The position numbers and the translations under genes were made by a program. DNA of 20,784 nucleotides. Origin: Promethearchaeota archaeon (GTDB taxonomy: Archaea > Asgardarchaeota > Hermodarchaeia > Hermodarchaeales > Hermodarchaeaceae). Under the pieces are notes generated by a model, which was not told the origin of the DNA, made no database searches, and saw only the letters and a list, made by a program, of their open reading frames with translations. This document shows positions 15,450 to 20,784 of this stretch, in pieces. The stretch's first letter is position 1; each line of letters opens with the position of its first letter. The DNA lies in assembly GCA_048939245.1 (NCBI GenBank), contig JBHLPR010000037.1, positions 1-20,784 on the forward strand, in the 5' to 3' direction.

Positions 15450-15635
15450 CTCAGAATTTACAAATTAGGGGGAGAGAAAGGATTCTTTGCATGCACTTAT
15501 TATGCTTGCGTTTAAGGTGCTACTTGACTTCGAAAACCTTGACCGAGTGTAAAGATTAAAAAACAGATACTATCCTGTGAAGATAATCTCACATCCCACT
15601 CATAATGGGAGAACCTTAAAGGATGGAAAGAAACC

Positions 15636-15812
15636 ATGCCCCCGAAAGTAGACGAAACCAAATGTACAGGTTGTGGCACATGCGTCGATGTGTGTCCCAG
15701 TGAATGCTTTACCCTGGAAGACAATAAGTCTAAAGTCACAGATCCTGACGCGTGTGTTGAGTGCGAAAGCTGCGTCGAGAACTGTACAGAAGAAGCAATC
15801 GTCTTAGAATAG
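15636..15812 (+). CDS. 2[4Fe-4S] dicluster ferredoxin, 58 aa (not in the ORF track)
   Basis: MPPKVDETKCTGCGTCVDVCPSECFTLEDNKSKVTDPDACVECESCVENCTEEAIVLE* contains two CxxCxxCxxxC motifs. Confidence 0.95.
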   Translation: MPPKVDETKCTGCGTCVDVCPSECFTLEDNKSKVTDPDACVECESCVENCTEEAIVLE

Positions 15813-15951
15813 CCGATTAATTGGCTTGAGACGATTTGCGTACGGTTTACTGGATAGCAGGTTCCCTGTTTTAATTCATCAGAGGGGCTAATGCTCACTG
15901 GTAGTGAATCTCGACTTCTTAAGCCACAAGTTTCTGTTATCCTGTAAAATA

Positions 15952-17148
15952 TTAGAGTGAGGTAGTTTCTAGATTTTTTCGTCGCCTTATTACATAGATG
16001 ATGACGAGAATCACGATAGCAATGATGATGATTACGATAACTATCTCAACGTGGAGTGGAGGCGGAGGGGGGACTGTACACGGAATTGAGATTGTGCCAT
16101 TTACCCCAATCATATCGGTATAGGACCCTGCATTAACGCCCGCCCCGCTGACAGACCCATAAACCTCGATTGCAATTTCGCAGCTTTCGTTTGCAAACAT
16201 TGAGGGGGCTTGACAAGTCCAATGGATTGAGGAAGTTTCTGAGTTGAGGTCAAGTGATGAACTGGGTCCCGAAACAATCGTAAAATTCGCGGGGAGTGTT
16301 AGGTTTGCTGTGGAAGAACTAATGGGATATTGTGAGCGGGAAAAAGGGTCAGGACAGGGACTGGTGATATCAGCCGTGATATTGAAGTTTTGATTGGGGA
16401 GTATGGGTGAAGTATCGGAGGTAATAACAAGAGTCCAGGGTTGTATAATCATCCCCCAGCGGCTATATTGGAGCCAGAGATTATTGATGAGCAAAGTTTG
16501 GTCAATGGTTTCATTGGGACCTTGATAGATCCCTGAATACCAAGGGTCATGGAGGATGAAATTGTTGGAAGTATCATTGTAGCCTTTGAGAACTCGGTAA
16601 TGTCCGACAGAATGACTGGTGTCATAATAGGTGAGGACGAGGAGGGGAATATCGTTGAGGAGGAGAGTTTTCACCGAGGAACTTATCGATTCATAGGAAC
16701 CGCTCCATTGATGCCAGTATGCAGGAAAACCGAACTTACGCATTCCGAATCCGTCAGGAGGAATATCTGTGGCATCACTGAGATAGCTGTAATGTGCGGC
16801 ACGTATCATATCACTGGTATAGGTTCCGGAAATATCTGTTGCAGCAGCCAAAGCAATCTCCGATTGGGCGATATCGGGTCCATAATAATCGAATAGCATC
16901 TCTAGCGCAGCGGGGCCACACCAGACTGATGTAAGTTGTTGATAATAGGGTACTTCAAACTCATAGACAAGGGGCAATGGTTGCCAATTAGTGTATGAAT
17001 GGAACATAGAGGGCTTCGATTCATGAGATTCAATTTGCGATTGGGGAAGTTGAAGCGAAGCTGAAGTCGGTCGAACCAATCCGCTGATTAGTAGAGTTCC
17101 GATTAGAATACAAAAGAGGGCTTGATGTGTTGTTTGGGAAACGTTCAT
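15952..17148 (-). CDS. Secreted, C-terminally membrane-anchored C39-like (papain-fold) cysteine peptidase with an Ig-like domain
   Basis: Signal peptide; VPYYQQ...WCGPAALEML (Gln/Cys), GHYRVLKGY (His) and ILHDPW (Asp); then a beta-rich domain, PPPPP, a hydrophobic TM and RRRK. Confidence 0.88.
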   Translation of the reverse strand: MNVSQTTHQALFCILIGTLLISGLVRPTSASLQLPQSQIESHESKPSMFHSYTNWQPLPLVYEFEVPYYQQLTSVWCGPAALEMLFDYYGPDIAQSEIALAAATDISGTYTSDMIRAAHYSYLSDATDIPPDGFGMRKFGFPAYWHQWSGSYESISSSVKTLLLNDIPLLVLTYYDTSHSVGHYRVLKGYNDTSNNFILHDPWYSGIYQGPNETIDQTLLINNLWLQYSRWGMIIQPWTLVITSDTSPILPNQNFNITADITSPCPDPFSRSQYPISSSTANLTLPANFTIVSGPSSSLDLNSETSSIHWTCQAPSMFANESCEIAIEVYGSVSGAGVNAGSYTDMIGVNGTISIPCTVPPPPPLHVEIVIVIIIIAIVILVIIYVIRRRKNLETTSL

Positions 17149-17303
17149 TGAGACTACCCCTTTAAGATGGCTGTTAGAAAACTAATACCACACAGTAAAC
17201 AAAGGAGTAGTTAAATCTTCATCAACTGAATGAGAATAAGAGCATAGAGGGATTCTGATTATTTTCGACTATACAGATGAGTGAATACAAAGGTGAACCA
17301 TAA

Positions 17304-17338
17304 GCCAAAAAAAGAAGTGGCGCAAAACTCTGCGCCAC
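17304..17338 (-). terminator. GC-rich hairpin followed by a U-tract (minus strand)
   Basis: Minus strand reads GTGGCGCA-gagttt-TGCGCCAC-TTCTTTTTTT, a perfect 8-bp stem at 17331-38/17317-24. Confidence 0.7.
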
Positions 17339-17580
17339 CCAGTAGCGGAATGGGGCAGTCCTAGAACGAGGACATAAAGGAGGAGAGGGGGAGAGGGGAA
17401 TGAAAGACACAGGGAAGGATACCCCATCCTTTCGCCGTAGTAAGTTCGTTTTACCTCGTTTGGTGTCTTGTGCTTGATAACTGTGCTCCCGTCGAAGTGG
17501 AATTGTGCAGAAAGTATGCTCTTTGACACTTAAGTGTGAATTATTGTGCTCTATTCCACCTCGGGGAACTCCCGTTATCC
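17305..17580 (-). ncRNA. Candidate structured non-coding RNA (~275 nt), family unrecognised
   Basis: Nested helices 17574-79/17476-81, 17564-69/17485-90 and 17553-63/17493-503. A second domain is closed by 17463-69/17404-10. There is an upstream TATA and a downstream hairpin + U-tract. Confidence 0.55.
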
Positions 17581-17600
17581 ACGGTTTATAAGGCGTAGGG

Positions 17601-17621
17601 AATTTAAAATGCTTTCCTTTT
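17601..17621 (-). promoter_or_regulatory. Putative BRE/TATA promoter for the candidate ncRNA
   Basis: Minus strand AAAAGGAAAGC-ATTTTAAATT. The TATA is centred ~25 nt upstream of position 17580. Confidence 0.5.
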
Positions 17622-17685
17622 GGTTATGGAGTTTTTTCCGGAAATTGGTCGTGATTCGGAAAAAATAATGTTTGCTTCAATTGGT

Positions 17686-19455
17686 TTACAGGGATTGACG
17701 GCGCTTTCGATGGATTAAGATCACTACGAAGCAACCTAGAATTAAACCAATGAAGATTGAGACAATGGGATACCCTGGTATCTCTGGAAAGGAAGTGGGT
17801 ATTGTGGATTCTAAGAAAGTAACTTTGAAGGTGGTAGAAAGTGCATTTCCGTAGGGATCACTAACGGTGACATTAAGGCCATAGGTTCCTGGAGAAACAC
17901 CTGAGACGCTTTGAAGAAGTCCAGAACTAGAGAGAAGGAAATTCGTTGTATCGTTAATATACCACTGGGCAATACCGGATCGGTCAGTGGCATTGAGTTG
18001 AATGTGAAGCGCGTTGCCAAAATTAAGAATTAGGTTTTGGGGTGAATTAACCCATGTGGGTACGGTAGTATCGCGGATAGAGAAGGTAAACGTGGTTGTG
18101 AGTGTGAGTGCACTGGTGTCATTGACTCTGACTTCGAGGCCGTAGTCTCCTACGATTAGAGGTGTAGCGTTTCTGATGAGACCGGTTCCGTCGATGGTGA
18201 AGTGAGTGGTGTCATTGATCCACCAGGTGTCGATGGGATTCGTAGAAAAAATATTGAGTTGATAGTAACAGGGGTCTCCAAATTCGATTTGTTGGTCTGT
18301 GGGTGAATCGAGCCATTCAAAGGGGAGGTGTCGTGGGACAAGGCCGAAGGCTTCGAAAAGGTATTCGCCGATATCGGTCAGATGGGTGAAGCTGGGGAGG
18401 ATCTCTGATGTATTATGATACACGAATACAGGAACGGGAGCAGCGGTGTGGTATGTATCGGTGAATTGGTACTGTAAGTCGGGGTTACTCATATTGACCC
18501 AAAGGCCACCGCATTCGTGGTCTGCGGTTACGATTAGAAGCGTCCGAGGGGTTTGCCTGGCGTATTGATATGCTACTTGCACAGCTTCGTCAAAGGCGAT
18601 AGTTTCACCGATGGTGTGGTTGATATGCCAATCGTGACAGGCATGGTCGATGCGCCCACCTTCGACCATCAGGAAGAATCCGTCGGTATCTCGGTCAAGG
18701 ATTTGTAAGGAGACATTGGTCATTTCAGTGATATGCGGTTCATTTAGTGGGTTGCGATCATATTCATAATTCATTGAAAAATCGGCAAACAAGCCAAGAA
18801 GATAGTCTTCAGTGACACTTGCTAGCATATCGGTTCGGTTTTCAACAATGTGGTAACCTTTCGCTATGGCGGTCCCTAATCGCGCTGAGTAATCTTCTAG
18901 TCCACCGCCAAGTAATACTTCAATGCCTTTAGTTAGTTGCTGTTGGGCAATCGTTGCATATTGGTTTCGATGCGAAACATGGGCAGAGAAGGGTCCTGGT
19001 GTCCCATGGTAAAGTGGAGTGGTCGTCACTAAACCAGTCGCTTTGCCTAAGGCTTCAGCAGCTTCAAGAATCGTGGTCAGAACTTGCCCATCAGGAAGCA
19101 TGGAGACCATATTATTGTTAGTGCGATTGCCAGTTGCTAGGGCTGTTGCTGCAGCAGCGGAGTCTGTTACAGATGCATCCAAGGAATAGGTTTCGATATC
19201 ACCGAGATAGGATAACTCCGCCATAGTTAGATTGGCTGAGGTACCCAGCCATTTTTTGGTGGCATTAATTTGCCCCCAGCCCATCCCATCACCAATCATC
19301 AGAATAACATTATCAAAAGGTGCATCGGGAAGTGGTGGAGTGAGATCCACGGATTGGTTGGCCAGCTGACTTGTGTTTCGTGGACTCGTGAAATAAGGAT
19401 TGATAAGCAGCAGACCGAAGAGAAGTATGATGGCTGAGAGCTGACTATTTTTCAT
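17686..19455 (-). CDS. phoA: Cell-surface alkaline phosphatase (PhoA family) with two Ig-like repeats and an IPGY-TM-basic C-terminal sorting signal
   Basis: NVILMIGDGMG, TDSAAAATA (catalytic Ser), MVEGGRIDHACH and VTADHECGG. Two ~85-aa W...INDTT.F...G.YGL.V.V.D repeats. Tail IPGYPIVSIFIGLILGCFVVILIHRKRR. Confidence 0.92.
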   Translation of the reverse strand: MKNSQLSAIILLFGLLLINPYFTSPRNTSQLANQSVDLTPPLPDAPFDNVILMIGDGMGWGQINATKKWLGTSANLTMAELSYLGDIETYSLDASVTDSAAAATALATGNRTNNNMVSMLPDGQVLTTILEAAEALGKATGLVTTTPLYHGTPGPFSAHVSHRNQYATIAQQQLTKGIEVLLGGGLEDYSARLGTAIAKGYHIVENRTDMLASVTEDYLLGLFADFSMNYEYDRNPLNEPHITEMTNVSLQILDRDTDGFFLMVEGGRIDHACHDWHINHTIGETIAFDEAVQVAYQYARQTPRTLLIVTADHECGGLWVNMSNPDLQYQFTDTYHTAAPVPVFVYHNTSEILPSFTHLTDIGEYLFEAFGLVPRHLPFEWLDSPTDQQIEFGDPCYYQLNIFSTNPIDTWWINDTTHFTIDGTGLIRNATPLIVGDYGLEVRVNDTSALTLTTTFTFSIRDTTVPTWVNSPQNLILNFGNALHIQLNATDRSGIAQWYINDTTNFLLSSSGLLQSVSGVSPGTYGLNVTVSDPYGNALSTTFKVTFLESTIPTSFPEIPGYPIVSIFIGLILGCFVVILIHRKRRQSL

Positions 19456-20424: not shown

Positions 20425-20784
20425 TTTTAGAGAGGGGAGAGAGGGTTGAATGTTCGATAAATGAAACACCTGCGCATTTTGCTGTTGCATTGTGTATTTG
20501 CGTGAAAACTTTCGTATTCGTGTTGCTATTCATAATGTCCAGGAGTTATGTGTCCCGCGAAGCATAGATGCCCCGGCTTTTCGGTTTTTTGTTTGTCCTC
20601 TTTTTCTTCCTGGCATATACGGTGTCTGCCGTTACAATAGCACTTTTTCTAAGAACAGCTAGCTTGTATGAGCTCTCAAAGCAGAAGAGTGGCTGATGGT
20701 AACACATAACTACGGAGGTATGGTTCTTGTAGTGCAAAAGTAGAGTGGAGGTGCCCGACCAATGAGCGCGGGCACGTCCTGTGT
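20425..20784 (-). ncRNA. Second candidate structured RNA element (5' end outside the window)
   Basis: Several complementary segments: 20751-57/20769-75, 20702-11/20544-53, 20608-13/20539-44 and 20520-24/20465-69, plus a GAAA-tetraloop hairpin at 20504-19. No convincing ORF. Confidence 0.35.

Follow-up and report, generated by a model that had tools for sequence, protein, structure and literature searches.

The window, by which we mean the whole 20,784-nt stretch of DNA analyzed here, contains an intergenic region flanked on the minus strand by an alkaline phosphatase ORF (17686-19455) and, downstream, a C39-like peptidase ORF (15952-17148). The first-pass annotation had proposed a stand-alone RNA gene on the minus strand, starting at about 17580 and ending near a T-run. 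Every element of its motif list is indeed present on the minus strand where it had been placed, and conservation among homologues begins at 17580 and stops at 17307, so that in the alignments the edges of the conserved unit coincide with the predicted +1 and the T-run. The predicted transcript delimited by these boundaries (17580-17307, minus strand) is 274 nt long, and its 3' part (17307-17442) is matched by a covariance model described below. Judging from comparison with homologous loci, it is highly probable that this stretch is an independent and genuine ncRNA gene of a Hermodarchaeia (Asgard) archaeon. The fuller reading, in which the gene is at the same time the long, A-type member of a lineage-specific family of small RNAs and acts in trans through its loop, appears reasonably probable to us.

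The window contig belongs to an Asgard archaeon of the class Hermodarchaeia whose genome encodes TBP, and exact matches to the invariant core of the RNA are confined to MAGs named Hermodarchaeota or Promethearchaeota. Because the host is an Asgard archaeon, a BRE/TATA promoter and an oligo-T terminator are the right frame for reading the signals around the RNA. The predicted promoter (17617-17602) consists of a BRE-like GGAAAGC (17617-17611) and a TATA box TTTTAAAT (17609-17602), and is nearly invariant in all homologues; in the sister genus it reads GGAAACC plus TTTTAAAA, at an unchanged distance from the RNA. The distance from the TATA center to the first conserved transcript base is about 25-26 nt. 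The conservation of the box and its constant spacing bear out the BRE/TATA assignment made in the first-pass annotation. Comparison of the upstream 45 nt of 11 homologues further revealed a semi-conserved, AT-rich proximal promoter element, YTATA, at about -12 to -5 (17592-17585), followed by T/G at -1/+1. Further upstream lies a palindrome (17632-17665) composed of T6CCG, a 16-nt spacer and CGGA6, the arms of which are invariant and the spacer variable in 10 same-genus homologues. It ends 14 nt before the BRE and accompanies the RNA gene irrespective of the upstream gene. This palindrome may be a site for a regulator, or an oligo-T insulator or stop that acts in both directions.

At the other end, an 8-bp GC hairpin (17339-17317) and a T7 run (17313-17307) together look like an archaeal oligo-T terminator with a protective stem (17339-17307). 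The hairpin varies in sequence yet keeps its pairing, with compensatory changes in four of nine stem pairs, and the T-run is found in every homologue. The RNA thus shows a conserved BRE/TATA, a co-varying 3' hairpin and a T-run of its own within an intergenic region.

The A-type unit is present in 13 of the 19 Hermodarchaeia genomes, namely in 10/14 of the same genus and 3/4 of the sister genus. Across these 10 same-genus genomes the whole unit shows 77-80% identity, and in the sister genus the 3' half reaches 88-89%; the neighboring phosphatase, for comparison, shows 64-77% protein identity. Conservation is unevenly distributed along the RNA. The first 37 nt (alignment columns 1-37) carry no substitution in most congeners and differ in the sister genus, the middle is variable and rich in indels, and about 55 nt comprising a C/U-rich block and the start of the hairpin P3 are free of substitutions in all 15 sequences, which come from two genera. 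Single-sequence folding is far less informative. The minimum free energy fold of 281 nt recovers a long 5' helix and the terminator, and beats shuffled sequences marginally and not clearly above chance (z = -1.87 on the minus and -1.27 on the plus strand). Computed by domain, the z-score for the 5' hairpin is -5.5 (plus strand, -3.5) and that for the 3' domain -2.8, so that the two-strand comparison gives a weak signal for the unit as a whole and a clear one for the 5' hairpin. We therefore regard comparative conservation, above single-sequence folding, as the decisive evidence for the RNA unit. The same alignments speak to the strand. G-U pairs had been taken in the first-pass annotation as pointing to the minus strand, and variable sites are mostly C/U exchanges opposite G and A/G exchanges opposite U, by which pairs are kept only on the minus strand.

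Such a conserved unit might in principle encode a small protein, either as an 86-aa ORF overlapping the RNA (17269-17529, minus strand) or as a short plus-strand ORF antisense to the loop. Both options exist here, and the plus strand even reads a strong SD followed by an ATG. However, the start codon of the 86-aa ORF, whose protein-level conservation would have spoken against an RNA gene, is lost in 12/12 homologues, stops interrupt it in 10/12, the invariant block is found in all three frames, and the ORF has no Pfam match. The antisense ORFs vary in length and position. A complete lack of synonymous variation across 55 nt does not fit a coding sequence, and the unit carries no coding signal; a small protein gene is scarcely credible.

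The first-pass annotation had offered as an alternative that the RNA acts in cis on the downstream peptidase gene, as a 5' leader or attenuator, with a CCCA/UGGG hairpin competing with the terminator. The peptidase does lie on the same strand, with the RNA 159 nt upstream here and 388 nt upstream in one relative (G010), and such a hairpin could compete with the terminator. Synteny turned against this idea: the peptidase lies downstream in just 1/11 other loci, in 5/12 loci the nearest ORF on the downstream side is convergent, and the neighbors of the paralogous RNAs described below are unrelated to a peptidase. The competitor hairpin fared no better, since it did not exceed shuffles and its CCCA belongs to the co-varying 3' strand of the helix P2. 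With no conserved synteny at the locus, a leader function is highly improbable.

We also compared the region with known RNAs. A search of the whole window against Rfam 15 gave no match at the gathering threshold. At E<=10 it returned only noise, namely plus-strand hits to mir-1902, ylbH, and ES003 that scored far under the cut-off. This agrees with the first-pass annotation, which had seen no hallmarks of SRP RNA, RNase P RNA or tRNA. The window RNA resembles archaeal SRP RNA (RF01857) in its archaeal origin, its length of the order of 300 nt and its promoter of the type seen with abundant RNAs; unlike SRP RNA, its 5' and 3' ends do not pair and the model gives no match at the locus. SRP RNA was detected at other loci in 16/19 Hermodarchaeia genomes, and the full-length copies of relatives (104-137 bits) lie on contigs other than those carrying the C/U-loop RNA. 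The archaeal RNase P RNA (RF00373) of this genome is located elsewhere (C31:5750-6136, 167.5 bits), and ARAGORN found no tRNA or tmRNA gene in the window. An identity as C/D-box sRNA was rejected as well, as neither box C (RUGAUGA) nor box D (CUGA) occurs, even in relaxed form, in 13 same-genus homologues. A literature search on Asgard or Hermodarchaeota ncRNAs retrieved nothing relevant. SRP RNA and 16S rRNA were not detected in the 88%-complete MAG of the window, and relatives have both, so they probably fall into an assembly gap.

The core of the predicted structure is a long-range closing stem. Its 5' strand (17436-17422) comprises P1, GGCG (17436-17433), a 3-nt A-rich bulge and P2, GGAUGGGG (17429-17422); its 3' strand (17355-17344) comprises CCCCAUUC (17355-17348) and CGCU (17347-17344). 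In 15 A-type sequences the 12 pairs of P1/P2 are 100% paired, with compensatory changes at three positions: GGAUAGAG/CUCUAUCC is found in the sister genus, and C-G replaces U-A in two congeners. For all five pairing and covariation measures, at most one of 500 shuffles reached the observed value, and every slid control was beaten. When the paralogues are included, seven of eight P2 pairs show both-sided changes, a count that leans the model's way as the extended alignment was fitted to the model. Based on this covariation, we interpret the C/U tract as part of a large loop (roughly 65 nt here, about 50-60 nt in the core shared by the family) that is closed by the P1/bulge/P2 helix and contains P3. 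The C/U-rich part (17421-17374) carries a CAU and several CCUC/CCUCC motifs, and positions 17414-17373 are unsubstituted in 15 homologues from two genera. P3 itself (17373-17358) is a GUCCU-loop-AGGAC hairpin with an invariant stem and a nearly invariant loop. The first-pass annotation had instead drawn an AAGGAU/AUCCUU hairpin in this domain. This element is paired in 72% of the alignment with no compensatory change, and we discarded it; its GGAU belongs to P2, where compensatory changes are found. Inspection of GGCG-AAA-GG as a possible K-turn showed no tandem G-A pairs on either strand.

The covariation also bears on the possibility that the conserved unit is a DNA-level repeat, the end of a mobile element or a recombination site rather than a functional RNA. 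Such a view could appeal to contig C88 of genome G018, from the sister genus, in which the 3' third of the A-type unit occurs three times (at about 230-300, 1246-1327, and 2013-2090), each time directly after one of three consecutive ORFs, one of which encodes a RING-finger/PCI-like protein. These copies carry the P3 hairpin, the 3' strands and the 3' stem; the first folds as a mini member of the family (z = -3.8), and the remaining copies fail to fold and look decayed. In the window's genome, on the other hand, the A-type unit is single copy, with no repeated or complementary copies beyond 14-15-mers, no inverted terminal repeats and no nearby transposase, and viral contigs contain no exact match to the loop of either the A-type RNA or the paralogues. 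Strand-specific, G-U-preserving changes together with compensatory pairs argue for selection on the RNA, and we consider a DNA-level element very unlikely.

At its 5' end the RNA carries the purine-rich 37-nt block noted above (17580-17544), which shows no substitution in most congeners, carries an SD-like GAGGUG and has the option of forming a CGGG/CCCG mini-hairpin. Together with a variable 3' arm (17504-17476) and small, species-specific hairpin caps, this block is predicted to form the 5' hairpin domain (17580-17476). The duplex between block and arm reaches -36.3 kcal/mol here and z-scores of -1.2 to -4.6 in most congeners, but its z-score is about 0 in two congeners (G005 and G006), and the arm is missing altogether in the sister genus. 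The long nested 5' helix of the first-pass annotation is thus strong in this genome and is not a constant feature of the RNA.

An alternative partner for the 5' block emerged from RNAalifold, which joins it to the first half of the loop (GAGG-U-GGAAU-AGAG-CACA with UGUG-U-CUUU-C-AUUCC-CCUC). For three sequence versions of the 5' block this duplex amounts to -20 to -27 kcal/mol, with z-scores of -2.1 to -3.2 against shuffles. Two sister-genus RNAs have different 5' blocks and keep the complementarity to the loop via a shifted bulge. The pairing shows no true covariation within the genus because both strands are invariant there. It crosses P1/P2 and would therefore have to be a pseudoknot or an alternative state. 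In this genome the 5' block pairs with its own arm at -36 kcal/mol vs -27 kcal/mol with the loop, and the two values are comparable in most congeners.

The linker (17469-17454) adds two further pairings of this kind, as its AAGACAC (17469-17463) and AACGAGG (17460-17454) are complementary to parts of the loop region. AAGACAC/GUGUCUU (17410-17404) is paired in 93% of alignment cells and shows 11 one-sided, wobble-keeping changes; AACGAGG/CCUCGUU (17371-17365) is paired in 98% and shows one compensatory change, C-G to U-A. Both cross P1/P2 and would again be pseudoknots or alternative states. AAGACAC/GUGUCUU is the helix by which the first-pass annotation had closed a second domain.

To delimit the family, we used two covariance models: R1, built on the 3' domain of the A-type RNA, and R2, broadened with paralogues. 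The window RNA scores 143 bits with R1 and 131 bits with R2 (17307-17442). R1 also produced weak second matches within Hermodarchaeia, which correspond to small RNAs (about 120 nt) that have TATA boxes and T-runs of their own. These small paralogues have a freely co-varying outer helix followed by P1, an A-rich bulge and P2 arranged as in the A-type, and they fold unaided into outer helix, P1, P2 and C/U loop. They retain P3, with a U-rich loop. Their large loop is a different yet related invariant C/U loop, and both loop types share the core CAUUCCC-UCUCCCC-UCC. With R2 we found 63 matches in 19/19 Hermodarchaeia genomes, with one to five per genome and four in the genome of the window. Neither R1 nor R2 had a match in 132 other Asgard genomes, which is to be read as not found in this sample under strict filters rather than as absent.

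The three other members in the window's genome, all on the minus strand of their contigs (C96:22380-22523, C105:21782-21899, and C93:13742-13864), are about 110-145 nt long and have the closed stem with a nearly identical pyrimidine loop. The genes next to these three are metabolic and unrelated, and include glycerate-kinase-like, ADP-forming acyl-CoA synthetase, radical-SAM, H+-PPase, and acyl-CoA dehydrogenase genes. The window RNA fits the definition of the C/U-loop family, with a P1 of 4 bp, a 3-nt bulge, a P2 of 8 bp and P3 within the loop. Taken together, these comparisons indicate that it is very probably the longest, A-type member of a previously undescribed, Hermodarchaeia-specific, multi-copy family of small RNAs.

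Some related tracts lie outside this definition. A second intergenic element of the window (20425-20784) contains a similar CAUUC...CCCUCUCUCCCCUCUCU tract at 20429-20452 on the minus strand; it gave no match to R1 in a search of the window at E<=10 and can be no more than distantly related. Near 15482-15466, just upstream of a RidA-like gene, there is another, weaker C/U tract. In the sister genus, the copy in G016 (C131) has extra CCCCUYCU-like repeats upstream of the invariant core, and the contig ends inside the RNA.

What might such an RNA do? We consider a role in translational control most likely. The loops carry anti-SD-like CCUCC/CCUC motifs and a CAU, and the 5' block of the A-type carries an SD-like GAGGUG. 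The SD consensus of the genome is GGAGGTGA (also given as GGAGGUGA), and the 16S rRNA of a relative ends in GGAUCACCUCCU (...CACCUCCU). By analogy with known small RNAs, we tentatively propose, as the simplest reading, that the exposed loop acts in trans as an anti-RBS and blocks translation initiation. The closing stem, made of P1, the 3-nt A-rich bulge and P2, would hold out the sequence-invariant C/U-rich loop, and the CAU and CCUC/CCUCC motifs of the loop would pair with start codons and purine-rich ribosome-binding sites, so that initiation on the bound mRNA would be blocked. In the A-type, the SD-like 5' block (GAGGUG...) could be either locked in its own hairpin or paired with the first half of the loop. 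The latter state would mask the loop, and the 5' block may thus represent a built-in decoy or switch.

The complementarity of the loop to 800 initiation regions, scored as contiguous pairing, averaged 14.7 compared with 14.6 for dinucleotide-shuffled loops. As the loop is no better than shuffled loops at initiation regions, the anti-RBS idea draws on composition and short motifs only. RNAduplex applied to 3192 initiation regions returned only long, gappy, meaningless duplexes, and no long complementary target was found in the window's genome. Likewise, neither the loops nor the 5' block were more complementary than shuffles to the 16S rRNA locus of a relative. Moreover, about 55 nt unsubstituted across two genera is more than a short seed needs and points to a partner that recognizes the loop over its full length, be it a protein or a second RNA. 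The loops of paralogues without the 5' block are completely invariant as well.

A serious rival is therefore a protein- or ribosome-binding role, with the RNA as sponge or scaffold. In its protein form, which we consider possible but somewhat doubtful, the C/U loop would be a platform for a pyrimidine- or C-rich-binding protein, for example a KH-domain (Dim2/Pno1-like), S1-, Sm- or Csp-like protein, which the family would titrate or deliver as a sponge or RNP scaffold. Dim2/Pno1-like KH proteins read the CCUCC end of 16S rRNA. Consistent with such a platform, loops of about 45-55 nt are wholly invariant in both A-type RNAs and small paralogues and the surrounding helices co-vary; UCCC/CCUC/CCUCC motifs are repeated in the loop and expanded in G016; the invariance of the P3 hairpin and the constancy of the 3-nt bulge are reminiscent of recognition features; and complementarity to initiation regions is nothing beyond composition. 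Against it, no gene for a candidate protein is linked to any of the copies, and the signatures of K-turns and C/D boxes are both absent.

A bolder version of the ribosome-directed idea, which we regard as improbable, is that the family serves as a global, class-specific regulator of the translation machinery rather than repressing mRNAs one by one. The CCUCC loops would then imitate the 16S rRNA 3' end and the GAGGUG of the A-type a Shine-Dalgarno site, so that the A-type would carry an internal copy of the SD:anti-SD helix. What the RNAs titrate would be a factor recognizing this helix or the free anti-SD tail, for which a Dim2/Pno1-like KH protein, an initiation factor and 30S subunits are candidates. 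If true, the archaeal lineage closest to eukaryotes would possess a counterpart of 6S RNA directed at the ribosome.

The anti-RBS reading has its closest counterpart in Methanosarcina mazei, in which anti-RBS loops of sRNA154 (loop 2) and sRNA41 are proposed, in a review, to mask RBSs and repress translation (PMC5867862). Like these two, the Hermodarchaeia RNA is archaeal and intergenic and has its own promoter, and it would expose a loop with anti-RBS-like motifs. It differs from them in having no sequence or Rfam relationship to either, in a wholly invariant loop of about 50-60 nt on a long bulged closing stem, in forming a family of one to five copies, and in the self-complementary SD-like 5' block of the A-type. 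In bacteria, RsaE/RoxS and hairpins of Staphylococcus RNAIII use unpaired C/U-rich motifs to pair with G-rich Shine-Dalgarno regions and have a 3' terminator hairpin. The Hermodarchaeia RNA shares the unpaired C/U-rich motifs and the terminator hairpin at the 3' end; however, in bacteria small hairpin loops present short UCCC seeds, the invariance of the Hermodarchaeia loop is far greater, and these RNAs belong to another domain of life with no homology to it. A parallel for the protein-binding rival is provided by CsrB/RsmZ, which titrate CsrA. Both systems are multi-copy families with repeated short motifs in single-stranded regions, but the CsrB/RsmZ motif is GGA, recognized by CsrA, whereas the Hermodarchaeia motifs are pyrimidine-rich and their partner protein is hypothetical.

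To our knowledge, regulatory RNAs of Asgard archaea are almost entirely uncharacterized, as most lineages are uncultured and known from MAGs alone. The locus and its paralogues constitute a well-delimited RNA family with strong comparative evidence from promoter, terminator, co-varying stem and a loop unchanged between two genera. Within the genomes sampled the family is restricted to a single Asgard class, and the covariance model supplies an annotation for 63 otherwise empty intergenic regions. The 120-nt minimal member and the 274-nt self-complementary member are experimental objects with which control of SD-dependent initiation in Asgard archaea, or proteins reading long pyrimidine tracts, can be tested. 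Should the loop prove to be a decoy for a protein or the ribosome, the family would represent a new type of archaeal riboregulator.

Two observations made along the way concern other genes. In G006 the match to the 16S rRNA model, which has 1478 positions, is stretched over 3.6 kb (C71:619-4212), and in G004, G015, and G017 it is fragmented, which suggests that Hermodarchaeia 16S genes hold large insertions or introns; any 16S match at all was obtained in just 6/19 genomes. Finally, the window contains a previously unlisted gene for a 58-aa 2x[4Fe-4S] ferredoxin (15636-15812, plus strand; Fer4, E 5e-13). A 128-aa frame on the opposite strand ('orf128', 15512-15898, minus strand), considered as a conserved partner gene, turned out to be a shadow frame of this ferredoxin. 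The ferredoxin region is 70-76% conserved in relatives and lies near the RNA gene in both genera, in differing orientations.
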